Shown here: piece by piece, positions 2,469 to 49,040 of the stretch | Layout of the letters: the number at the start of each line of letters is the position of its first letter | Position numbering within the stretch: the first letter of the stretch is position 1 | NCBI GenBank assembly: GCA_016176525.1 | Contig: JACOWZ010000003.1 | Coordinates: 385,000-448,999 of the forward strand | Direction of reading: 5' to 3' | Length of the DNA: 64,000 nt | Source of the DNA: Candidatus Colwellbacteria bacterium | GTDB lineage: Bacteria; Patescibacteriota; Minisyncoccia; UBA6257; Colwellbacteraceae | Notes under the pieces: generated by a model | Databases searched by the model: none | Seen by the model: the letters and a program-made list of their open reading frames with translations, nothing else | What the model was told of the DNA's origin: nothing | Program-made: the position numbers and the translations under genes

Positions 2469-3158
2469 CTATGCACCAAATTTATTGAGCGGGCATTTGT
2501 CGTGTGCGTGGGGTTTTGCGGCACAGTAGGTACGGCCATAGTCTACTAGGCGATAGTTTAATTCCGGCCATTCTTTTTTAGGTAATAATTCCATAAGGTC
2601 CCGTTCAATTTTTACGGGGTTTTTGTGTGCGGAGAGCCCCAGGCGTTGTGATAGGCGCATAACGTGCGTGTCTACTGCAATGCCCTCCACAATGCCGTAT
2701 GCATTGTGTAGCACAATATTGCCGGTTTTGCGCGCTACGCCGGGGAGTTCTAAGATTTCTTCCATTGTATTTGGCACCTTGCCGCCGAATTTTTCTTTAA
2801 CAAGTTTAGCGGAGGCCAAGATATTCTTCGTTTTATTGCGATATAGGCCGATTTCTTTTACGTCTTGTTCAAACTCCTCTTGTGTTGCGTTTACATAATC
2901 ATCCAGTTTTTTATATTTCTTAAAAAGCCGCGTGGTTACTTCATTTACCTTTTTGTCTGTTGTCTGCGCGGACAAAATTGTGGCAACCAGCAATTCCCAC
3001 GGATTTTTCCAATTAATTAGTGCAACTTTTGTTCTTGGAAATAGTTTTTTTAAGATTCTTAATATCTCTTTTGCTCGCTTTTTTCTTTTTTCTATAGACA
3101 TACCCACTTTAGTTTTTATCTTTAACCTTACCTTCAACCAGGTGTTATGATCAATCAT
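2469..3158 (-). CDS. nth: Endonuclease III (DNA-(apurinic or apyrimidinic site) lyase); the true start is probably the internal Met near 3101 (MSIEKRKK...)
   Basis: HhH-GPD region (LPGVARKTGNIVL), C-terminal 4Fe-4S Cys cluster (CAAKPHAHDKCPL). The longest-ORF start lies inside the 24-bp palindrome. Confidence 0.85.
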   Translation of the reverse strand: MIDHNTWLKVRLKIKTKVGMSIEKRKKRAKEILRILKKLFPRTKVALINWKNPWELLVATILSAQTTDKKVNEVTTRLFKKYKKLDDYVNATQEEFEQDVKEIGLYRNKTKNILASAKLVKEKFGGKVPNTMEEILELPGVARKTGNIVLHNAYGIVEGIAVDTHVMRLSQRLGLSAHKNPVKIERDLMELLPKKEWPELNYRLVDYGRTYCAAKPHAHDKCPLNKFGA

Positions 3159-3164
3159 AACACC
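3141..3164. repeat. 24-bp perfect palindrome GGTGTTATGATCAATCATAACACC (copy A)
   Basis: Read directly. Identical 11-bp arms recur at 3756, 28534 and 49017; only the central 2 bp vary. Confidence 0.9.
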
Positions 3165-3421: not shown

Positions 3422-4052
3422 ATTCTTTTAGTGTTAGAGAATTGATGCGGGTGAATTTGCCGACGCGGGTGCGCTCTAGCGCAGCTAGGTAGCCGCCGAC
3501 GCCGAGCTTTGCGCCAATGTCGCGGGCAAGCGAGCGAATGTAAACACCCTTACCGGTTTTTACGCGAATTTCCAAATATGGCCACTTGTATTTAATAAGT
3601 GCAATTTTTTTAATTTCAACTGGCCTTGGTTTTAACGCAGGAGTCTTGCCTTTGCGGGCCAATTGGTAAGCACGCTTGCCTTTGAGTTTTATTGCGCTGT
3701 ACGCCGGCGGGGTTTGCATAATTTTATCCTCAAAGGTTTTTAGCACTTTCTTTACGGTGTTATGATTGATCATAACACCGGTCTCTTCACGCTGCATCGG
3801 GCCTTCTGCATCATCTGTTGCGCTTGTGTACCCAAGTTTTATTTTTGCGATGTATTCTTTATCTGCGGCTACCTGCTTTTCTAGTTTGCGAGTATATTTA
3901 CGGCTGATTGCGACAACAAGCACCCCCTTTGCTAAAGGGTCTAGCGTACCGGCATGTCCGATTCGGCGTTCGCCGGTTATTTTGCGGAGTTTGTTTATTA
4001 TGTCGTGCGAAGTAGGGCCAGTGGGCTTATAAATACCAAAAATACCTTCCAA
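3396..4052 (-). CDS. truB: tRNA pseudouridine(55) synthase TruB
   Basis: GHAGTLDPLAKGVL catalytic motif; QTPPAYSAIKLKGKRAYQLARKG region. Contains the in-frame 8-aa insert GVMINHNT encoded by the palindrome. Confidence 0.9.
   Translation of the reverse strand: MEGIFGIYKPTGPTSHDIINKLRKITGERRIGHAGTLDPLAKGVLVVAISRKYTRKLEKQVAADKEYIAKIKLGYTSATDDAEGPMQREETGVMINHNTVKKVLKTFEDKIMQTPPAYSAIKLKGKRAYQLARKGKTPALKPRPVEIKKIALIKYKWPYLEIRVKTGKGVYIRSLARDIGAKLGVGGYLAALERTRVGKFTRINSLTLKEFASKYDKV
3756..3779. repeat. 24-bp palindrome copy B (GGTGTTATGATTGATCATAACACC), in-frame inside truB
   Basis: Read directly. Confidence 0.9.
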
Positions 4053-18380: not shown

Positions 18381-18409
18381 TTGTCGGCCCATGGCGCCAT
18401 TTTTTTAAC

Positions 18410-20482
18410 CTATTCTTCCAGTGTTCTAAAACTGTGAGTGCTGGATTGTGTTGTATTGCCAGACTCATCAGTTGATTCAACCATGAAGAAGTAGGTTGTG
18501 TCGGGGCTAAGCCCTGTAACATTCTTTGAGTGGGCTGTTACAAGGTTTGCATCTCCGACTGAAGCCGCGGTTTCTGTATCAATCGGGCTTGCAGTGGAGT
18601 AGAAGACTCGGCTAGTGGATGCTTCATCCGTAGCCCAGCCTACCGTAACCGAAGTAGAAGTCCTATTAGAAACGCCGATATTAGAAATTACCGGCCCTTC
18701 TGTGTCTGCAGGCTTTTCTACTGCAAGAGTGTCAAAAGACATCTCTTCGCTCATAGAAACGTTGCCTGCCTCATCTGCCGACTCTACTATAAAGAAGTAG
18801 GTTGTTTCTGCATCAAGTTCGCTCAAATCAATTGAGTGAGATGATACGAGCTCTGCGGAAGAAACACTGTCAGCAGTTTCCACGTCAATGTTTGCCTCGT
18901 TAGAGAAGTAGACCTTAGAGTTGGAGCTTTCATCCGTATCCCAAGTTATTGTTGCGCTAGACTCTGTTATATCAGAGGTAGCAACATTAGAGATTACGGG
19001 AGCTGTTTCGTCTAGTTCTTCTTCCTCTTCTACAGCAAGCGTGGCAAATGAGTTTTCATCAGATTTGCTGACATTGTCTGCATCATCCGCAGAAGACGCT
19101 ACAAAGAAGTAGGTAGTCTCGGCTGAGAGGTTGTTCAAGGTTATAGAGTGAGTTCGAGTGCTGTCAAAGGCCCTCGTTACAGAGAATGATGTTGCTTCGT
19201 TAACTGGGCTTGTAAGAGAGTAATCTACTCGGCTATTGGAGTCTTCATCGGTTGTCCAAGTTACCGTTGCACTGGAGTCCGTAATGTTTGTTACCTCTAC
19301 GTTGGAGATAACCGGAGCCTCGGTGTCGGCTGCCTCTATTGTAGTAAACGAACCCTCGTCGGAGGTGGCAGTGTTGCCGGCCTCATCGGTTGATTCAAAT
19401 ACAAAGAAGTACTTGGTTCCCGCTGCAAGATTCATTAGATTCTTGGAGTGCTCGGTTACCAAGTTAGAGTCGCCTACAGAAGCTGCAGTCTCGGTGTCAA
19501 CGGGGCTTACAGTTCCGAAGTAAACTCGGCTTGTAGAAGCCTCGTTTGTATCCCAGGCAATAGCTGCGCTAGACTCTGTAATATTCAAGGTTTCAATATT
19601 ACTGATTACGGGAGCAGCTGTATCAGCCTCATCTTCATCATCTCCATCCTCGTCCTCGTCTCCGTTTTCGTCCTCATCTTCATCTTCTTCCTCTACAGCT
19701 TCTGTAGTGAAGGAACCCTCGTCGGAGGTGGCAGTGTTGCCAGCTTCGTCAATTGATTCTACAATGAAGAAGTATTCAGTCTTAGCTGTTAGACCAGTTA
19801 GGTTCTTAGAGTGAGCTGCTGCCAGATTACTGTCGCCTACAGAGGCGGCGGTTTCTTTATCAACCGGAGTTGAGGTTCCGAAGTAAACTCGGCTGGTTGA
19901 CGCTTCATCCGTAGTCCAATTTACGGTAGCGCTAGACTCCGTTATGTCTGTGACTTCAATATCACTTATTATCGGAGCTGTTTCGTCAGCCGGTTCTTCG
20001 TCTTGTCCGGCTGCTAATGCTTGAAGTTGCAGAACAATACCCGGAGGCAAATCGTCGCCGCACTCTTCAAGAATTAAACTAGCCGAAACAAGGCCGCGTT
20101 TAGCAAGATTAAGCAGTATGCCTGGTGGTTGGTCGCAGAGATCAGAGTCTTTCTGCGCTTTGGCAAATCGTACTGAACTTGCCGATTCCATAGAGGCGGA
20201 ATTCTGAACCTCGGCGTCAATGCTCTCTGAATCATCGCCAGCAGATGTTACAGCAACGTCATTAACAGATTCTACGCTTGCATCGGTGGTGGTTTGTGCG
20301 ACCACATTAGAAGATTCGCCGTCTGTACTAAACACTAGCGTTGTTGCAATAGCCAAAGTCAGCGCTACAAGCGTGACAATAGCAACTGAAATTTCTCCTT
20401 TCTGGTGTGTCAGTTTTTTAGTCATTGTTTTTTTGGTTTTTAATACGGCACTTAGTAGGTGCCTTCGACCTTTATGCCCCAT
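18410..20482 (-). CDS. Membrane-anchored surface protein with five tandem fibronectin type III-like repeats and a poly-acidic linker
   Basis: N-terminal cytoplasmic tail plus TM; five ~100-aa repeats (APVISN..T.ITESSA...W.TDE.S.SRVYF....P....TA.SV...NL...HS..L..L...T.YFF.VES.DEAGN); EEEDEDEDENGDEDEDGDDEDE linker. Confidence 0.75.
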   Translation of the reverse strand: MGHKGRRHLLSAVLKTKKTMTKKLTHQKGEISVAIVTLVALTLAIATTLVFSTDGESSNVVAQTTTDASVESVNDVAVTSAGDDSESIDAEVQNSASMESASSVRFAKAQKDSDLCDQPPGILLNLAKRGLVSASLILEECGDDLPPGIVLQLQALAAGQDEEPADETAPIISDIEVTDITESSATVNWTTDEASTSRVYFGTSTPVDKETAASVGDSNLAAAHSKNLTGLTAKTEYFFIVESIDEAGNTATSDEGSFTTEAVEEEDEDEDENGDEDEDGDDEDEADTAAPVISNIETLNITESSAAIAWDTNEASTSRVYFGTVSPVDTETAASVGDSNLVTEHSKNLMNLAAGTKYFFVFESTDEAGNTATSDEGSFTTIEAADTEAPVISNVEVTNITDSSATVTWTTDEDSNSRVDYSLTSPVNEATSFSVTRAFDSTRTHSITLNNLSAETTYFFVASSADDADNVSKSDENSFATLAVEEEEELDETAPVISNVATSDITESSATITWDTDESSNSKVYFSNEANIDVETADSVSSAELVSSHSIDLSELDAETTYFFIVESADEAGNVSMSEEMSFDTLAVEKPADTEGPVISNIGVSNRTSTSVTVGWATDEASTSRVFYSTASPIDTETAASVGDANLVTAHSKNVTGLSPDTTYFFMVESTDESGNTTQSSTHSFRTLEE

Positions 20483-20567
20483 TTCTGCACAAGATTTTGC
20501 ATTATGGGTTCAATTGCCTAGACGAGAGGTATTTGCTGCGTGCTACAAGATGGTATAATTTAAGAAA

Positions 20568-24065: not shown

Positions 24066-24527
24066 ATGAACAAATTTGTAGTAATAGCGGCTGTTGTTAT
24101 TTTGGCGCTTGTTGGGTGGTGGATATGGTCTCAAGGCGGCGCACCAACAACGCCAGGCACTGAAGAGACATCGCAAAATGGCGAGGTTACAGGAGAATCT
24201 GCTACTATTCAGCTTGCACAGAGTAATTTTTCTGGAGTAAGTGGTGCTGCTACTCTTATCGAATCAGGCAACAACCTTGTTGTGATGATTGAAACGTCTG
24301 GTGCACCCGGTGGTGTTGCACAGCCGGCGCACATACATGCTGGCACTTGCAGCGAGCTTGGTGGAATAGTGTATGAGCTTGCTCCTGTTTTGGATGGCAG
24401 TTCAGAAATACAGCTATCCGGCGTTAGCCTTAGCGATTTGGCTGAACAAATGCCTTTAGCTATAAATGTGCACAAGTCCGCTGAAGAAATAGGTGTAAAC
24501 GTTGCTTGTGGAGACATATCGCTTTAA
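24066..24527 (+). CDS. Secreted CHRD-domain protein
   Basis: N-terminal TM; PAHIHAGTCSELGG / LAINVHKS CHRD-like motifs. Confidence 0.5.
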   Translation: MNKFVVIAAVVILALVGWWIWSQGGAPTTPGTEETSQNGEVTGESATIQLAQSNFSGVSGAATLIESGNNLVVMIETSGAPGGVAQPAHIHAGTCSELGGIVYELAPVLDGSSEIQLSGVSLSDLAEQMPLAINVHKSAEEIGVNVACGDISL

Positions 24528-24600
24528 TTTAGACTTAAAGCTAGCAGTAAAAACGGGCAAACTTGCCCGTTTTTGCGTTTTCAATATAATAAGCAGGTAT

Positions 24601-25842
24601 ATGAAAAAAAGAATAAAGAGGATAATTGTGGTTACTATTTTAGTCCTTGCGCTTATCTCGTTTTTACTGCCGCCAACTTTTGGCGCAACAGAAGGTGTAA
24701 GCGCAAATGCACCTAAAATCTTGCCTGCAAATCCCTTCTATTTTATAAAGGAGGTTGGCCGCGGCGTGAGGAGTATTTTTACGTTTAACTCCACCGATAA
24801 AGTGGAATATGAGTTAAAAGTGGCAGATGTAAAAGCATTGGAGGTTGAGGCAGCGACAAATAATAGCAACGATCCTGGTGTGGTGGCTCCGGCAGTGCGT
24901 AATTTTAGAGAAAGCGTTGAAAAACTAAAACAACGGTTTGAAGGATTAGAACTCGCGACGGATAATGCGCGCATAGACGCGCTTTTAAATTTTTTTGCGG
25001 CTAGGTTGGTAAAACATACTGCAATTTTGCATAACGCAAGCAATAAGTTTAAGAGTTTGGAAAGTGAGATTATAGATGCAGCTAATAGTTTGCACAAAAC
25101 TTTTATTACAACAGTAGAGATGATTCTTAATTATACGAACGGAGACTTAAAGGCAATATCCATAATTGATTCAACAGATTCTATAGAAGAATTGATGCGT
25201 TTTAAAAACTATATAATTATGCGCTTTGAGGCAAGAGTTAAAGTAAGTGAACTTTCAAAAGAAGCTATAGAGGAGAGTATTGAATCTTTGGGGCTTAGTG
25301 AGGCGCGCAAGCTAAAAATTATAAATGAACTGCGAGAAAGAGCTTTTGATGAGTATTTAAAGAGTAATCTAAGTATAATAAAAACTGACTTAATAAAAAC
25401 TCTTGAATTGAATGGTGTGATTGAGGATAGCGATGTCCAAAAAGCTATTACAGAAGCTGAAGATTTAATTGAGTCTATTGCCGACCTTCAGATTGATAAG
25501 GCTAGATTTAACTTACTCGATGCGCAAAACTTGCTTAGAGCTGGTTCTAACGCGGCGGCGTTATCATCTGCACAGTCTGCTTATATCGCGGCGAGATCCG
25601 CTTTGGAAGAGTTGAATGCGAAGGATAAGGCGTCTGCAGAATTTTACTCGGAGCTTAAGGCGGAGTTTGATAGATTGGCCTCTATTGCAAGAAGCCGCGA
25701 TATTACAAGAGAAAACAATACTGCGTTTTATGAGCTATTAGAAAAAGTTGAAAAGCTGGTGCTTGGTGTGGAAACCTATGGACAGGCAAATGCCGCAAAA
25801 AGAGTGCTCACAGAGATAGAGGCGAGACTTTTAAGCTTGTAG
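24601..25842 (+). CDS. Secreted coiled-coil protein, DUF5667-like (start taken at MKKRIKR)
   Basis: Signal/TM then the PANPFYFIKEVGRGV motif and long helical regions. Confidence 0.5.
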   Translation: MKKRIKRIIVVTILVLALISFLLPPTFGATEGVSANAPKILPANPFYFIKEVGRGVRSIFTFNSTDKVEYELKVADVKALEVEAATNNSNDPGVVAPAVRNFRESVEKLKQRFEGLELATDNARIDALLNFFAARLVKHTAILHNASNKFKSLESEIIDAANSLHKTFITTVEMILNYTNGDLKAISIIDSTDSIEELMRFKNYIIMRFEARVKVSELSKEAIEESIESLGLSEARKLKIINELRERAFDEYLKSNLSIIKTDLIKTLELNGVIEDSDVQKAITEAEDLIESIADLQIDKARFNLLDAQNLLRAGSNAAALSSAQSAYIAARSALEELNAKDKASAEFYSELKAEFDRLASIARSRDITRENNTAFYELLEKVEKLVLGVETYGQANAAKRVLTEIEARLLSL

Positions 25843-25960: not shown

Positions 25961-27193
25961 TTAACCTAATCGGTCGTTTTTGATAAATATAAATAAGCCG
26001 CGAAGCCAGATTATAAGCGCCTTGTAGAGAGGCATAATAGAGGCAAGATATTTTAGCTCTACCAAGCCTTTTAATACCCATCCTAAAAATCCGCTTATTA
26101 TAAGCGGCCCTATTTTTGCAACTGCCCATTTGCCGCCCACAGGTATTATATAGGGGTAGCTTTTGGCGACATATTTTTTATGTGATGCAGTTTGTATGTC
26201 GCGGAGCACGTTTTCTGCCGCAACACGCGCTTGCTCAATCGCAGCAGGTGCCGTTTGCGGCGCTATTTGGCCCGTTTTTGGGTTTGTGGCACAGGTTATA
26301 TCGCCTATACCGAATATGCGGCCGTGGACAGTTAGGTCTGCGCTCTCCGGAATGCAAACCATTCCGCTCTCTACATCGGTTCTTTCTTTTGTTTTTCTAA
26401 ACGGTAGAGCTCGCAGTACGCTAGAGGGTTCTACTCCGCCAGTCCAGATAAGAACATCATAAGGGACGGTGTCTCCATCTTGGAGTAATAGATTTTTATT
26501 TTTTCCATCAACCGACACCACTGGGCTGTTTACGATTACTTTTATGCCAAGGCGCAGAAGCCTTTTGCTTATTTTTTCTATTACTCGTGGCTCAAAGTTG
26601 GATAGCACGGTTGGCCCTGCTTCTATTATTGTTATATTAGATTTTACTCCAAGCCAGTTTTTAAGTTCGCCTGCAAGCTCAACGCCGGTTGAGCCTCCTC
26701 CGATTACACAGATGTTTTCTCGCGGGGCTTCAGAGAGCACCGCATCTCTTATTTTTACAGCATCGGCGAATGTTTTAAATTCGTGGGCTGCTTCTTTTGC
26801 GCCTGGCACGCCGAAAAAGTTGGTTTGCGAACCTAGTGCCAATATTAAATAGTCGTACTTTATTGGATAGCCGTTTTTTAAGTGGATGTCGCCCGTACGC
26901 CTTGCTACGTCTAGCTCCGTAACCTCGTCGTTTATAAACTTTATAGGCAAGTTTTTAACCAGTTTTTCTATAGGGAATGTAACAATACGCTTGATTTTTG
27001 TATAATCCGCAGTTTCTTTATCAAGAGATGCTACTTCGTAGAGTGTGGGAGTATAGGTGTGGTACGCGTTTTTATCCACAAGTATAACCTCGTAATCATC
27101 TTGCAGATCGTATTTTTTAATGCCTTTACCAAGCGCTTTTGCAGCCGTTAGGCCGCCAAAACCCGCGCCTAAAATTACAATCTTTTTAACCAT
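25961..27193 (-). CDS. ndh: Type II NADH dehydrogenase / FAD-dependent pyridine nucleotide-disulfide oxidoreductase
   Basis: N-terminal Rossmann IVILGAGFGGLTAAKAL, second dinucleotide site ICVIGGGSTGVELAGEL, C-terminal TM tail. Confidence 0.85.
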   Translation of the reverse strand: MVKKIVILGAGFGGLTAAKALGKGIKKYDLQDDYEVILVDKNAYHTYTPTLYEVASLDKETADYTKIKRIVTFPIEKLVKNLPIKFINDEVTELDVARRTGDIHLKNGYPIKYDYLILALGSQTNFFGVPGAKEAAHEFKTFADAVKIRDAVLSEAPRENICVIGGGSTGVELAGELKNWLGVKSNITIIEAGPTVLSNFEPRVIEKISKRLLRLGIKVIVNSPVVSVDGKNKNLLLQDGDTVPYDVLIWTGGVEPSSVLRALPFRKTKERTDVESGMVCIPESADLTVHGRIFGIGDITCATNPKTGQIAPQTAPAAIEQARVAAENVLRDIQTASHKKYVAKSYPYIIPVGGKWAVAKIGPLIISGFLGWVLKGLVELKYLASIMPLYKALIIWLRGLFIFIKNDRLG

Positions 27194-27233
27194 ATCTTAG
27201 TAGTATAAGATATATAGGTTATAATCTAAAATA

Positions 27234-28292
27234 ATGGAACTAATATTCTTTGTTGTACTCACAATTGTTTTAATTGCCGGTTTCGGCCTGATTTTTTGGA
27301 CTTTACGCGGCGGTAAAGGCGAGGCTTCTGCGGGAAACTCGCTTAACCTTATTCAAAACCAGATAAACGAGCTTAATCGCACTTTAGACTCTAAACTTGG
27401 AGAATCGGGTAAGGCAATGCGCGAGCAGTTTTCTGAAAGCGCAAAGATTATTCGCGATGTAACCGAGAAACTAACCAGGCTTGATGAAACCAACAAGCAG
27501 GTTGTTAGTTTCGCGGACCAATTAAGGAGTTTGCAAGACATATTAAAAAATCCAAAACAGCGCGGAGTATTGGGTGAGTATTATCTTGAAACGCTTCTGA
27601 AAAATGTCTTGCCGCCTGATATATACAAAATGCAATATGCTTTTAAAAATGGTGATATTGTTGACGCCGTTGTTTTTGTAGGCAGGAAATCAGATGAGAA
27701 AATTATTCCGATTGATTCCAAATTTTCTTTAGAAAATTATAATCGGTTGGTTGAGGCAGCCGATAAGTCCGAAAAAGATCGCCTTGAGAAACTTTTTGTA
27801 AATGATCTCAAAAACAGAATTGTTGAGACATCAAAATATATCCGACCGGAGGAAGGGACTACTGACTTTGCTTTTATGTTTATTCCACATGAGGCAATTT
27901 ATTACGACCTATTAATTAACAAAGTTGGCGCAGTTTTGGAGGATACGGAAAATTTAATCCAGCGGGCCGCCGGTAAATACAAGGTTTTGATAGTTTCTCC
28001 AACTTCCTTTTTGGCATACCTGCAAACTGTTTTACAAGGCTTGCGTGCACTGAAAATAGAAGAATCTGCAAAAGAGATTAGGAAGCGGGTTGAGGAATTG
28101 GGCAAGCATATGTCGAGTTACGACACATATATGCAGAAGCTTGGTGCCCACCTTGGAACATCGGTAAATATGTATTCCAACGCGTACAAAGAGTTTAAAA
28201 AAATTGATAAAGACGTTTATCGTATAACCGGAGACAAAATGAATATTGAGCCTCTTACTGTGTCTGGCCCGGATTCGGCAGAAGATGAATAA
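27234..28292 (+). CDS. rmuC: DNA recombination protein RmuC
   Basis: N-terminal TM, long coiled coil, C-terminal RmuC nuclease-like domain (FAFMFIPHEAIYYDLL). Confidence 0.85.
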   Translation: MELIFFVVLTIVLIAGFGLIFWTLRGGKGEASAGNSLNLIQNQINELNRTLDSKLGESGKAMREQFSESAKIIRDVTEKLTRLDETNKQVVSFADQLRSLQDILKNPKQRGVLGEYYLETLLKNVLPPDIYKMQYAFKNGDIVDAVVFVGRKSDEKIIPIDSKFSLENYNRLVEAADKSEKDRLEKLFVNDLKNRIVETSKYIRPEEGTTDFAFMFIPHEAIYYDLLINKVGAVLEDTENLIQRAAGKYKVLIVSPTSFLAYLQTVLQGLRALKIEESAKEIRKRVEELGKHMSSYDTYMQKLGAHLGTSVNMYSNAYKEFKKIDKDVYRITGDKMNIEPLTVSGPDSAEDE

Positions 28293-28983
28293 AGTTGGTA
28301 TACAGAAAAAGTGGAGTAAATTTAAACACCGCGTAGGGTTGTTCAATCACGTGCCTTTTGTTGATTTTGCTTTTGCGGCGGGGAGTATGGCGATGGGCTC
28401 GGCGCGCGAGGATTCGGATTTTGACGTAATAGTTGGTGCACGGCACGGCAGAATTTTTACAGTGCGCTTTTTTTCGCATTTATTTTTCGCCTTGCGCAAA
28501 TGGAGAGCAACCCATAATTCAGATTCTCACTTAGGTGTTATGATTAATCATAACACCAGATCTAAAACTGCAGATAAAATATGTTTAAATCATTTTGTAA
28601 CGCCAAAAAGCTATAAATTCTCACCGCCATATAACGAATATTGGAATAAACTGTATTCAAACCTTGTGCCCTTACTCGGAAACGAGCCGGAGATAGAAAA
28701 GTTTATAGATATGAACGATTGGGTGCGGCCGGAGAGAAAATATATGCGCAGCCCTTTCCATGAGAATTTTAAGCCATCGCGCATACGAAAGTTTTTAGAG
28801 CGCGCACTCTCCGGGCCGTTTGGAGACTATATTGAAATAAAACTAAAAGCTTTCCAGATAAAAAGGATAAAGAAAAGCGCGAGTGATCCATCACACTATA
28901 AACCGCGCATAATTTATAGCGACGACGAGCTGGAGTTCCATCCGGATACCAAGAGAATTGAAGAAATACTTACTAAAAAGTAG
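28285..28983 (+). CDS. Nucleotidyltransferase-domain protein (Pol beta superfamily); overlaps the rmuC stop by 8 nt
   Basis: GSMAMGSAREDSDFDV (GS...DxD) NTase motif; contains the in-frame GVMINHNT palindrome insert. Confidence 0.6.
   Translation: MNKVGIQKKWSKFKHRVGLFNHVPFVDFAFAAGSMAMGSAREDSDFDVIVGARHGRIFTVRFFSHLFFALRKWRATHNSDSHLGVMINHNTRSKTADKICLNHFVTPKSYKFSPPYNEYWNKLYSNLVPLLGNEPEIEKFIDMNDWVRPERKYMRSPFHENFKPSRIRKFLERALSGPFGDYIEIKLKAFQIKRIKKSASDPSHYKPRIIYSDDELEFHPDTKRIEEILTKK
28534..28557. repeat. 24-bp palindrome copy C (GGTGTTATGATTAATCATAACACC), in-frame inside the NTase gene
   Basis: Read directly. Confidence 0.9.
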
Positions 28984-29031
28984 GAATTCTAAATATGTTA
29001 CACTACTTATTAGTACCTTAGAGGTGTTCAT

Positions 29032-29637
29032 TTGAAAAACAAAGGAAGGATTATCGGATCGTCGCCGGCTGCCGACTTTAAAAATAGCACTGCGTGGGCG
29101 AATATAACTTGGCACATGCTTGATGACAAACCCTTTGGCAAACCATTTGTCGCGTCGTTCGGCTGGCGTAATGCGATGGCTTACATCTACAGTAAGACGG
29201 CATGCGACGCTCTTGTGTCGCAGTGGTGGAAGAAGAAGCGAGACCCTACAAGCCATGAAAGAAGAAATATCATTCGCCGGGAACGTCGGGACGGTTGGCG
29301 TACGGTGATGGTAAAGCTTGTTCCACTCCAGAAAGGCGAAGGCAGGCGTTCAGAAACCGACTTTTTGGGGGAAACTGGAATCGCTTGGGTGAACATTAAC
29401 ACACCCAGTCCAATCTGGCCGAACGAGAAACCGGGTGTCTGTGACGGATTCATAACAGGTGGTCCGGCAGCATTTGGCACTCGCAACGGCGCGATTGATT
29501 CCGCTATACACTGGCGCTGGTACAAGAAACGCAAGCCCACTGCCGCCGATAGGAGAAAAATTCTAGCTGGACTCCGCCGCGAAGGCTACCGCACTATTAT
29601 GGTAAAACTTGTGCTGGTAAAGCCACTTGAGCCTTAG
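29032..29637 (+). CDS. Hypothetical Trp/Arg-rich protein with an internal duplication; higher GC than its surroundings
   Basis: Two homologous halves ending ...WWKKKRDPTSHERRNIIRRERRDGWRTVMVKLV and ...WYKKRKPTAADRRKILAGLRREGYRTIMVKLV; about 50% GC. Confidence 0.5.
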   Translation: MKNKGRIIGSSPAADFKNSTAWANITWHMLDDKPFGKPFVASFGWRNAMAYIYSKTACDALVSQWWKKKRDPTSHERRNIIRRERRDGWRTVMVKLVPLQKGEGRRSETDFLGETGIAWVNINTPSPIWPNEKPGVCDGFITGGPAAFGTRNGAIDSAIHWRWYKKRKPTAADRRKILAGLRREGYRTIMVKLVLVKPLEP

Positions 29638-29660
29638 GAAAATTCCTAAGGCTTTTTATT
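29631..29660 (+). terminator. Rho-independent terminator (GCCTTAGG-loop-CCTAAGGC + TTTTTATT)
   Basis: Read directly, overlapping the stop of the upstream ORF. Confidence 0.6.
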
Positions 29661-29731
29661 AAAATGGTTTGACAATTAAGTCTTAGAGTTATATTCTCTC
29701 GACCAGAACCCTAAAAATAGGAGGAATTGAA

Positions 29732-30115
29732 TTGGTTCAAAAAGTAAAACTCAGAGTTCCTAGGGCTGCAGAATATTCTGCTATTATGGGGACTCTAAAA
29801 GCGCTAAGCAACGAAACCAGATGCATGTTGCTGGCACTACTTCTTAAGGCCGGCAAAGACGGCCTACGTACGAATGAGCTTGCGAGTAAGGCTGGGATAT
29901 CGCAAAGTCTTACTACTAAACACTTGATGCCACTTACGCAGACACTCTTAGTTGTTAACTATGTTAAGAAGATTAAGGGTGAGCGTCCCATTGCGAGCAT
30001 TTACTATGCATCTACAGAGGGTGAAAAGTGGTTCCGCAAGCTTCGATTCTTGCAAGATGGCGGCGTTTTACTCCCTCTTCTTCCTGAAATCCAAAAGATA
30101 GCCTCACGAACGTGA
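29732..30115 (+). CDS. Winged-helix transcriptional regulator (ArsR-like), TTG start
   Basis: AGGAGG SD 7 nt upstream of TTG; NETRCMLLALLLKAG...LRTNELASKAGISQSLTTKHL HTH. Confidence 0.5.
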   Translation: MVQKVKLRVPRAAEYSAIMGTLKALSNETRCMLLALLLKAGKDGLRTNELASKAGISQSLTTKHLMPLTQTLLVVNYVKKIKGERPIASIYYASTEGEKWFRKLRFLQDGGVLLPLLPEIQKIASRT

Positions 30116-30126
30116 GGTTTTTTTAT
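30102..30126 (+). terminator. Rho-independent terminator (CCTCAC-GAAC-GTGAGG + T-run)
   Basis: Read directly. Confidence 0.55.
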
Positions 30127-30173
30127 TCTTTTTTCACTAGCCACTAATCACTAGTCGCTATATACTTATTTCT

Positions 30174-32321
30174 ATGTTACTAAAGCGCTTGGAATTACAG
30201 GGGTTTAAGTCTTTTGCCGAGAAGACCGTTTTGGATTTAAACACACCCGTTACAGCAGTTGTTGGTCCGAATGGCAGCGGCAAATCTAATGTGACGGATG
30301 CCATCCGCTGGCTTTTAGGCGAGCGCGAAGCGCGCCATTTGCGGGGCGCAAAGGTAGAAGACTTAATCTTTGCAGGCACCGAAAAAAAGGCCCGCATGGG
30401 CCAAGCTCAGGCGACGCTAATCTTGGATAATTCGTCTGGTTATTTCCCCGTTGAATATGCAGAAGTGTCTGTTTCGCGCAAAATAAACCGTGACGGGGAT
30501 TCGCAGTTTTTTATAAACAAATCCGAAGTGCGGCTTAAAGATATTTTAGACTTTTTTGCAAAAACTCGCGTGGGTGCTAGGGGGCTTACAATAATTAGCC
30601 AGGGCGATAGCGATATGTTTTTGCGCGCGACCCCGGAAGAAAGGCGGGAGATGATGGAAGAAGTTTTGGGCCTAAAAGAGTACCAGTTGCGCAAAACAGA
30701 GAGTGAAAAGAGGCTTAAGACTACGCTTGAGAACTTAGACAAAGCCTCTGCTCTTATAGAAGAGATAAAGCCGCATATGCGGTTTTTGAAAAAGCAGGTG
30801 TCGCGCTACGAGAGCCGTGAGGTGCTATCGCACGAGCTAATGGATTTGGAGAATAATTTTTATGGCAAGAGGTTAAAAGTTTTTAGAACAGAGACTAAAA
30901 ATCTTAACACGCAAAGAGAATTGTTGGAGGCGGATATAAAACGCGAGGAAGCGAACTATAAAGAGCTTGAAGAGAATTTAAACAAAATTAAGGAGAGCGA
31001 ACCGAAAGAGGAAAAGGCAGTGGAAACCGATGATAAAGAGCGTGAAAAACTTTTGGCGCGCAGATCTGAGCTATCGCGCAGCTTCGGCAAAATTGAGGCG
31101 CAGTTAGAATTTGAAGCGGGGCAAAGAGCTGTTAAGAACGCCGGCGTAGACTTCGCCGCGCTTTTAAAGGAAGTAAGGGAAGTTGCGTACGCGCTGTTGC
31201 AAGAAACTGAAATCCAAAATATTTATACAAAGCTAGGTACTATTGTCAAAAAAATAGACGAAATTTTTACAGATGGCGATAAAGCGCAGAGCAAGGCTCT
31301 TATTGAGGCGCAAAATAAATTAGCAGGGGAGCTTGCCCGACTAGACAAAGAGATTAAAGATATAACGAAGCGTGAAGAAGAAGAGCGCTCACGCATGCTA
31401 AGTTTTAGTAAAGACTTTACCGATGCTTACGAAAAAGCGGAAATGCAGAGAAAAAAACTGGAGAGTGTCAAACAAGAAAAACAGAAAACTCAGTTTGCGA
31501 TAGAAAAAGTAGAGCTTCAGACGTCTAACTTAAAAGAAGAGTTAAGCCAGATTGGGCGCACACTTGAATCTATTGAAAATTTTGCAGTTACCGAGATTAG
31601 TGCTTTAGATGAAAATACTGCAATAAAACGCATGTATCGTCTGCGTGGAGAGCTGGCGGGTATTGGCGAGTTGGATGAAAATCTACTTAAAGAAGCGCGC
31701 GAGACTGAAGAAAGGCACACATTCTTAACTTCGCAGGTAGAAGATTTGCAAAAAGCCACAAACGACCTAAAAACTCTTATAAAAGAACTTGATGAGAAAA
31801 TTAAGCACGATTTTACGGATGCGCTAAAGTCAATAAACAACGAGCTAACAAGTTTTATGACTCTTATGTTCGGCGGAGGCAGAGCGAAACTTGTGGCGAA
31901 GCAACTAAATAACGAAATAATAGAGCAACAAAATAACAAGACAGATGTAGAAGATAGCCGGATTGGTATAGATGTTGAGTTGTCTTTGCCGCGCAAGCGC
32001 CTAAAGGGGCTCGAAGTGCTCTCTGGGGGCGAGAGGGCGCTTGTTTCTGTGTCAATACTTTTTGCCCTTATTTCTGTTAGCCCGCCGCCGTTTTTGGTGC
32101 TTGATGAGGTTGACGCACCCCTTGATGAGGCAAATGCCAAGAGGTTTAGCAATATTATTCGCGATATGTCTAAAAAAACGCAGTTTATTATTGTTACGCA
32201 CAACCGCGCAACTATGGAAGCTGCAGACTTTCTGTATGGAGTTACTATGGGGGCAGATGGCGCTTCGCGTGTTTTGTCACTAAAGTTGGAGGCGGCAAAA
32301 GAAGCTGTTGCGGCGGCATAG
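30174..32321 (+). CDS. smc: SMC-family chromosome segregation ATPase, unusually short (715 aa)
   Basis: N-terminal Walker A VVGPNGSGKSN; C-terminal LSGGERALVSVSILFAL signature with FLVLDEVDAPLD Walker B; coiled-coil middle; conserved synteny upstream of rpsP. Confidence 0.8.
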   Translation: MLLKRLELQGFKSFAEKTVLDLNTPVTAVVGPNGSGKSNVTDAIRWLLGEREARHLRGAKVEDLIFAGTEKKARMGQAQATLILDNSSGYFPVEYAEVSVSRKINRDGDSQFFINKSEVRLKDILDFFAKTRVGARGLTIISQGDSDMFLRATPEERREMMEEVLGLKEYQLRKTESEKRLKTTLENLDKASALIEEIKPHMRFLKKQVSRYESREVLSHELMDLENNFYGKRLKVFRTETKNLNTQRELLEADIKREEANYKELEENLNKIKESEPKEEKAVETDDKEREKLLARRSELSRSFGKIEAQLEFEAGQRAVKNAGVDFAALLKEVREVAYALLQETEIQNIYTKLGTIVKKIDEIFTDGDKAQSKALIEAQNKLAGELARLDKEIKDITKREEEERSRMLSFSKDFTDAYEKAEMQRKKLESVKQEKQKTQFAIEKVELQTSNLKEELSQIGRTLESIENFAVTEISALDENTAIKRMYRLRGELAGIGELDENLLKEARETEERHTFLTSQVEDLQKATNDLKTLIKELDEKIKHDFTDALKSINNELTSFMTLMFGGGRAKLVAKQLNNEIIEQQNNKTDVEDSRIGIDVELSLPRKRLKGLEVLSGGERALVSVSILFALISVSPPPFLVLDEVDAPLDEANAKRFSNIIRDMSKKTQFIIVTHNRATMEAADFLYGVTMGADGASRVLSLKLEAAKEAVAAA

Positions 32322-49016: not shown

Positions 49017-49040
49017 GGTGTTATGATCAATCATAACACC
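49017..49040. repeat. 24-bp palindrome copy D (GGTGTTATGATCAATCATAACACC), 28 bp upstream of lepA
   Basis: Read directly. Confidence 0.9.

Follow-up and report, generated by a model that had tools for sequence, protein, structure and literature searches.

The window analysed here is a stretch of 64,000 nucleotides from a metagenome-assembled genome of Candidatus Colwellbacteria (Patescibacteria/CPR). The gene under study, called the orphan ORF below, lies between a nucleotidyltransferase gene and smc, and its product, the repeat protein, is identical to the NCBI entry HYS87_02365. The genes and features of the locus are as follows.

24502-25842: gene of a DUF5667 protein
25961-27193, minus strand: ndh-type Pyr_redox_2 gene
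27234-28292, plus strand: rmuC (PF02646, E 1e-54), a backbone gene outside the orphan module
28285-28983, plus strand: gene of a Pol-beta-fold nucleotidyltransferase (NTase), a backbone gene of a family found across Patescibacteria
28534-28557: perfect 24-nt palindrome within the NTase gene; its in-frame translation, GVMINHNT, falls in a variable loop of the protein
29021-29026, plus strand: SD-like GAGGTG, read from the sequence, 5 nt ahead of the TTG start of the orphan ORF
29032-29637, plus strand: orphan ORF (repeat protein gene), TTG start, 201-aa product
29032-29334, plus strand: repeat 1 of the protein, residues 1-101, with a pI of 10.6 taken alone
29335-29637, plus strand: repeat 2 of the protein, residues 102-201, and the stop codon
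29629-29659, plus strand: intrinsic terminator (11-bp stem, 4-nt loop, T-run) overlapping the stop codon of the orphan ORF
29669-29697, plus strand: sigma-70-like promoter match TTGACA-17-TATTCT ahead of the wHTH gene (10 of 12 positions, consensus match only)
29732-30115, plus strand: gene of a putative ArsR/SmtB-like winged-helix (wHTH) protein, 127 aa, TTG start, GGAGG at 29720-29724
30100-30126, plus strand: intrinsic terminator of the wHTH gene
30174-32321, plus strand: smc, 715 aa, which bounds the variable slot on its downstream side and is preceded by a promoter-like site (30138-30166)

On the whole, the locus follows a conserved backbone order, namely ndh on the minus strand, then rmuC, NTase, a gap, smc, rpsP and KH, and in the window the gap between NTase and smc holds 1.19 kb. 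Downstream of smc lie rpsP, a KH-domain gene, trmD, rpsB and tsf. Three sequencing runs, each assembled on its own, yielded contigs that match the window with 100% identity over the locus and its junctions, and since the junctions are thus reproduced in three independent contigs, the locus is not an assembly chimera.

The gene layout given in a preliminary description of this DNA agrees with our analysis. The NTase gene starts with ATG at 28285, overlaps rmuC by 8 nt and includes the palindrome; the orphan ORF ends in a clean terminator, whose hairpin (29629-29654) has a dG of -17.9 kcal/mol (z -4.2) and is matched by none of 200 shuffles; and the wHTH gene, initiated at TTG (29732) with GGAGG 7 nt ahead of it, has its own terminator, with a hairpin at 30100-30119 of dG -12.9 (z -4.3). 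The 48-nt spacer between the NTase gene and the orphan ORF shows neither a promoter-like nor a terminator-like site and forms no stable structure, as judged by consensus signals in a host whose promoters are not characterised.

Neither mobility genes (integrase, transposase) nor a tRNA are present between 24.5 and 35 kb, and a search for flanking direct repeats around the orphan module finds none. The Rfam covariance models give no match in the window, the best being RAGATH-22 with 24 bits versus a gathering score of 120. The 10-mers common to the upstream regions of rmuC, the orphan ORF, the wHTH gene and smc are at about chance level, and by our own estimate a 14-nt inverted repeat (29135/29662) is no more than chance would give. 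As a side observation on the palindrome, the copy in the NTase gene is one of 4 in the window, and the GVMINHNT encoded by it is the sole low-pLDDT segment in the AF2 model of the NTase.

Relatives and base composition of the orphan ORF and the wHTH gene

We present here the searches for relatives of the repeat protein. A k-mer-seeded HMMER search of 5.8 billion clusters matches the protein to itself only. A profile built from the two repeats and run exhaustively by hmmsearch on 1.84 billion sequences, which represent about 15 billion proteins, likewise recovers nothing else. Neither degenerate patterns scanned across viral and metagenome contigs nor tblastn searches of phage and plasmid collections find a relative, and there is no paralogue within the window. 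The earlier statement that no domain can be assigned is borne out by the profile libraries: the whole protein has no match in Pfam, PHROGs or PADLOC at E<=1, its sole NCBIfam match (E 0.23) is noise, its halves give noise alone against Pfam at E<=10 (E 0.53), and sequence and profile searches of the PDB give nothing significant (E >= 0.07). By sequence comparison, the repeat protein is a singleton. The nearest syntenic genomes are distant, with identities of 52-54% for SMC (L005 and L006), 52-55% for the NTase and 71-76% for RmuC, and for a fast-evolving small protein orthologues could exist in genomes yet to be sampled.

The wHTH gene has some recognisable affinity. Residues 21-75 of its product are covered by the HTH_20, HTH_5 and NF033788 profiles with E-values from 8e-9 to 7e-3; among them, NF033788 scores 35.2 bits (E 8e-9) against a cutoff of 55, and HTH_20 scores 21.6 bits (E 2e-4) against a cutoff of 27. 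The matches are significant yet sub-threshold, and they point to the ArsR/SmtB-like regulator that had been proposed. The protein resembles ArsR/SmtB regulators in these profile matches and in size (about 100-127 aa); it differs in that, where ArsR has its CxC metal site, inspection of the wHTH translation finds a single Cys, in NETRCMLL, and in that the scores lie below the curated cut-offs. The NCBI model of the protein has 96 aa, so that its start, as inferred from the length, would fall at about residue 32 and cut into the matched domain. In PADLOC the protein matches generic HTH regions of Csa3/CasR only, and our searches find no close relative of it.

The wHTH gene had also been described as a private regulator of the orphan ORF, which the arrangement of signals does not sustain. 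Because a strong terminator (29629-29654) and a promoter-like site (29669-29697) lie between the two genes, the wHTH gene probably forms a separate, monocistronic transcription unit; it may or may not regulate the orphan ORF, and adjacency alone links the two. With the same signals between them, the genes do not have the single operon of a type II toxin-antitoxin-like pair.

As for base composition, the GC island noticed earlier (about 50% in a background of about 43%) is confirmed, the orphan ORF having a GC content of 0.517 (51.7%) against 0.426 (42.6%) for the window (z = 2.8 for windows of 606 nt). Only one region of the window is richer in GC, with 0.533 at about 39550, inside secA. For each of 69 genes we calculated the GC content expected from its amino-acid sequence and the window's own synonymous-codon preferences. 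The expected value for the orphan ORF is 0.478, which is among the highest of the 69 genes because of the many Arg, Gly, Ala, Pro and Trp residues in the protein, and roughly half of the 9-point excess is thus amino-acid content. The GC3 of 0.535, against an expected 0.444, gives a binomial z of 2.8. This is near the top of what native genes show, and smc (2.8), secA (3.05) and others match it, the gene-to-gene sd being 1.84. By tetranucleotide distance the orphan ORF has a z of 1.6 (95th percentile of windows) and the whole 1.19-kb module a z of 0.6, and in GC-normalised dinucleotide relative abundance (rho distance) the position is at the median. The wHTH gene is native in composition, with a GC content of 0.45 and a GC3 z of 0.3.

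The windowed calculation therefore supports one half of the earlier claim and not the other: the GC excess is real, and the signature of the module is native. The step from a compositional shift to horizontal acquisition is not supported, since the expected GC is already raised and GC3, tetranucleotides and dinucleotides are all within the native spread. The GC island is real, yet it is no evidence for foreign origin; the excess probably reflects an amino-acid content weighted towards Arg, Gly, Ala, Pro and Trp more than it does foreign origin, to which the high GC3 leaves some chance.

These results bear on the reading that the orphan ORF and the wHTH gene are a horizontally acquired regulator-effector cassette with a defence, toxin-like or anti-phage role, inserted between NTase and smc. 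Syntenic relatives lack the 1.19-kb gap content, our searches find close relatives of neither gene, and the orphan ORF has raised GC and GC3 and a tetranucleotide distance in the top 5% of windows, all of which such a cassette would show. We nevertheless consider it unlikely, since the supposed regulator gene is native in composition and so are the tetranucleotide and dinucleotide signatures of the module, mobility genes, a tRNA and flanking direct repeats are missing from the surroundings, and the repeat protein matches no PADLOC family (0 families) or PHROG and nothing in the viral, phage and plasmid collections. In addition, a terminator and a separate promoter-like site split the two genes, in contrast to an operon of the toxin-antitoxin type.

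The variable slot behind the nucleotidyltransferase in other genomes

An SMC-based scan of the genome collection returned only one unrelated, distant locus, and synteny was instead analysed via homologues of the NTase. This NTase family counts at least 449 members, with identities of about 50%, and the source names on its members are all Patescibacteria lineages or plain 'bacterium'. It shows an invariant G-S...D-F-D motif and has no curated family assignment, and an AF2 model built from a 69-sequence alignment is two-domain with a pLDDT of 91.8. Thus the neighbours of the orphan ORF are a bona fide RmuC (PF02646) and a two-domain NTase with GS...DxD, as in the Pol-beta NTases MNT, KNTase/ANT and GlnE; they differ from these known systems in being conserved backbone genes of Patescibacteria, and the repeat protein is not found with them elsewhere.

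We examined 12 NTase loci, in which rmuC is located directly upstream of the NTase gene in 9, at a distance of two genes in one and missing from two, and a relative of the repeat protein occurs in none (0/12). What follows the NTase gene varies widely. It is groES directly in three loci (L009, L012 and L013) and smc directly, after an 86-nt spacer, in L005, and in about half of the loci (5-6 of 12) a small basic PD-(D/E)xK-like protein comes right after the NTase. This family (alignment A3) has an invariant E...D...QxK signature, with one or two members in each of L008, L010, L011, L015 and L016. In L006/7, the gap between NTase and smc has an unrelated 134-aa ORFan, and in L014 it has unrelated ORFs of 186 and 229 aa. 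The slot ORFans of L006/7, L014 and the window are mutually unrelated; those of L006/7 and L014 are basic and GC-richer than their own genomes, an excess that is fully explained by amino-acid content, and in L006 a terminator follows the slot ORFan ahead of smc, as in the window. Alignment of the repeat profile by hhalign finds no relation to the slot ORFan of L007, to family A3 or to the wHTH protein, and the slots of the relatives have no Rfam match. One apparent similarity, between an ORF of L014 and the wHTH protein (BLASTP E 7e-4 in a single comparison), was discarded because the L014 ORF has no HTH profile match.

Our analysis shows that the position after the NTase gene is a variable slot, and that the pairing of rmuC with NTase is a conserved feature of the backbone, without the repeat protein. 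The gap content of the window is missing from the syntenic relatives, and as these are distant (52-54% identical in SMC), gain and loss are indistinguishable. The pair lies in housekeeping synteny (ndh, smc, groES, rpsP) and not in a defence island; in PADLOC, RmuC matches the generic RmuC domain of DRT.

The preliminary description had speculated on a module of RmuC, the NTase and the repeat protein, and had suggested looking for their co-occurrence. The speculation loses its footing here, since rmuC stands upstream of the NTase gene in 9 of the 12 loci, all of them lacking the repeat protein, and no relative of the protein emerges from the 12 loci or from the exhaustive search. A related reading makes the protein a lineage-specific third component of an RmuC-NTase DNA-processing or defence module, replacing the PD-(D/E)xK-like protein. 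As the orphan ORF is on the same strand as the NTase gene, with a 48-nt spacer and no terminator between, it is probably co-transcribed with it, and such a replacement would also fit the small basic PD-(D/E)xK-like family after the NTase in about half of the loci and the unrelated basic ORFan with a terminator at the same position in L006. We regard this reading as very unlikely, because for a singleton co-occurrence cannot be shown, the NTase has nothing downstream in 4 loci and no rmuC in 2, the repeat protein has no similarity to the PD-(D/E)xK-like family, the rmuC-NTase pair is placed among housekeeping genes rather than in a defence island, and the match of RmuC to the generic domain of DRT is the sole one in PADLOC. 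The more particular version of it, in which the repeat of about 95 aa would be a previously unseen nucleic-acid-binding domain acting as the lineage-specific RmuC-NTase partner in the place of the PD-(D/E)xK-like protein, has a slimmer chance still.

Internal duplication, selection and putative function of the repeat protein

The description of the protein as two homologous halves with a basic C-terminal motif proves correct. BLASTP aligns residues 1-102 with 103-201 at 40% identity over 85 aa (E 1e-13), 39 columns are invariant between the two repeats, and both repeats have the C-terminal motif W-[KY]-K-K-R-x-P-T-x3-R-R-x-I-x4-R-R-[DE]-G-[WY]-R-T-[VI]-M-V-K-L-V. At the DNA level the similarity is nearly absent, with a best BLASTN match of 14 nt. 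In a 41-codon C-terminal block, 21 residues are identical, 15 of which are encoded by different codons; the differences between repeats number 16, 9 and 32 at the first, second and third codon positions, and the divergence amounts to a pS of 0.88 and a pN of 0.34.

The antisense frame with shared wobble positions (ORF 29187-29540) also shows repeat similarity. That frame is interrupted by a stop codon at 29586-29588, within the conserved part of repeat 2, and by more stops at 29189 and 29183, and its BLOSUM sum between repeats is 123 versus 173 for the sense frame, i.e. the antisense substitutions are less conservative. The stop in the conserved block and the less conservative antisense substitutions together show that selection acts on the sense frame, and the orphan ORF is a real protein-coding gene under selection. 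Since the synonymous divergence between repeats is saturated, the orphan ORF is not a recent de novo ORF, and the protein is best explained by a domain of about 95 aa that was duplicated in tandem long ago. That the orphan ORF is instead non-functional, either a spurious or decaying frame in a GC-rich intergenic stretch or a gene for a non-coding RNA, is extremely improbable: a GC-rich island in an AT-rich genome is frequently an RNA gene, the ORF has no homologues anywhere and long ORFs are open on the antisense strand too, but its repeats are far more alike in protein (E 1e-13) than in DNA (14 nt by BLASTN), their differences gather at third codon positions with pN well below pS, the antisense frame is broken inside the conserved block, and an SD, a start codon and a terminator accompany the ORF, which has no Rfam match.

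In its properties, the repeat protein is strongly basic, having a pI of 10.5 and a net charge of about +20, and Trp makes up 5% of its residues versus a window mean of 1.3%. No 19-residue window has a hydropathy above 0.66, so that the protein is predicted to lack a membrane segment and a signal peptide. The two repeats share the conserved basic residues K37, R46, K68-K69-R70, R77-R78, R85-R86, R90 and K95 and the aromatics F16, W22, W27, F43, W66 and W/Y at 89; in each repeat this gives about 11 conserved Arg/Lys, including R-R-x6-R-R on a helix predicted to be amphipathic, and 5-7 conserved aromatics. A single-sequence AF2 model (pLDDT 34) is unusable for the fold; in this low-confidence model PT-x3-RR-x-I-x4-RR-x-G is helical and the beta strand RT[VI]MVKLV follows. 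By our own helical-wheel estimate, four arginines would lie on one face of the helix and Ile80 on the opposite one.

The explanation that we prefer overall, with about an even chance of being right, is a lineage-restricted, duplicated, basic and putatively nucleic-acid-binding protein encoded in a variable slot. The orphan ORF would be a gene restricted to this lineage of Candidatus Colwellbacteria and added to the slot, and it would be transcribed as the last gene of an rmuC-NTase unit, with the hairpin at 29629 ending the transcript. The product would be soluble, cytoplasmic and strongly basic, and the two repeats would form a covalently linked pseudo-dimer binding a polyanion, most plausibly DNA or RNA. 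It is the Arg/Lys and aromatic residues conserved in both repeats that make such a binder the most likely function, and for nucleic-acid binding by a pseudo-dimer in particular, judged from charge and conservation pattern, we put the chance at even or slightly below. Pseudo-dimeric nucleic-acid-binding proteins that arose by tandem duplication are exemplified by the TBP-type internal duplication; the repeat protein is like them in having two homologous domains per chain with conserved Arg/Lys and aromatics, and differs in that it has no sequence or profile similarity to such families and its binding is a prediction.

CPR genomes commonly contain singleton hypothetical proteins, and the orphan ORF resembles the orphan genes of CPR/Patescibacteria in that it has no detectable homologue, is small and basic, and sits in a variable slot of a syntenic block. 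Unlike many of them, it has an internal sign of long-term purifying selection. It is thus one more lineage-specific hypothetical CPR protein, with unusually good support for being a real gene, as the internal duplication provides its own test of selection. As a by-product, our analysis finds a Pol-beta-fold NTase that is widespread in Patescibacteria, usually beside rmuC and often followed by a small nuclease-like protein, and for experiments this conserved trio of rmuC, NTase and nuclease-like gene is more promising than the singleton repeat protein. As far as profile comparison reaches, the domain of the repeat protein belongs to no known family, and if it has a nucleic-acid-binding fold not seen before, one more family would join the very many Patescibacteria proteins that are annotated without a function.

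The nucleotidyltransferase family and its downstream neighbours

The Patescibacteria family to which the NTase (28285-28983) belongs is well conserved and has at least 449 members; it is uncharacterised, and neither Pfam nor NCBIfam gives a match above curated thresholds. Its AF2 model, with a pLDDT of 91.8, predicts a Pol-beta fold followed by a helical C-terminal domain. Among the 12 NTase loci examined from other genomes (L005 to L016), rmuC lies directly upstream in nine, and a family of small basic proteins is encoded directly 3' of the NTase in five, as follows.

L008 4774-5217, family member
L010 4709-5398, family member
L011 4995-5681, family member
L015 4729-5094 and 5200-5544, two members, a tandem duplication
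L016 4791-5423, family member

Pfam provides no assignment for this small family, and the invariant E...D...QxK of its members is a PD-(D/E)xK-like signature.

The slot before smc, the SMC homologue and the regulator start

In two other lineages (L006/L007 and L014), the variable slot between the NTase and smc holds unrelated basic ORFans, the one in L006 followed by a terminator.

L006 5698-6111, slot ORFan (the same as L007 1830-2234)
L006 6125-6144, terminator 3' of this ORFan
L014 4748-5308 and 5337-6026, two slot ORFans

Their G+C content is above that of their own genomes, an excess that their amino-acid content explains. The SMC homologue encoded next to the slot (30174-32321 in the window, with relatives in L005, L006 and L014) has just 715-736 aa and is thus much shorter than canonical bacterial SMC proteins, which have about 1,100-1,200 aa. 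For the ArsR/SmtB-like winged-helix regulator (29732-30115), the NCBI model has 96 aa, a length that would place its start at about Met32, inside residues 21-75 matched by HTH profiles; the TTG at 29732, with GGAGG before it, is the better start.

Palindromes and a compositional outlier in the window

The strongest tetranucleotide outlier in the window is found at 18400-20500, where one ORF encodes repeated fn3 / purple-acid-phosphatase-N-type domains.

18410-20482, minus strand, ORF of 690 aa

Most of the 40-nt spacer between the divergent ndh and rmuC is occupied by a perfect palindrome, which we regard as a candidate operator.

27192-27213, ATATCTTA-N6-TAAGATAT

Another palindrome, of 24 nt, is present in four copies, with none expected from shuffles, and the flanks of the copies are not conserved.

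3141-3164, 3756-3779, 28534-28557 and 49017-49040, GGTGTTATGAT(T/C)(A/G)ATCATAACACC

Three of the four lie within ORFs, all in the same phase and translated as GVMI(N/D)HNT.

truB, residues 92-99
NTase, residues 84-91, the sole low-pLDDT loop of its model
HhH-GPD glycosylase ORF, N-terminus, with the ATG of the ORF inside the palindrome

The 24-nt palindrome resembles, in miniature, the in-frame palindromic elements of Rickettsia.
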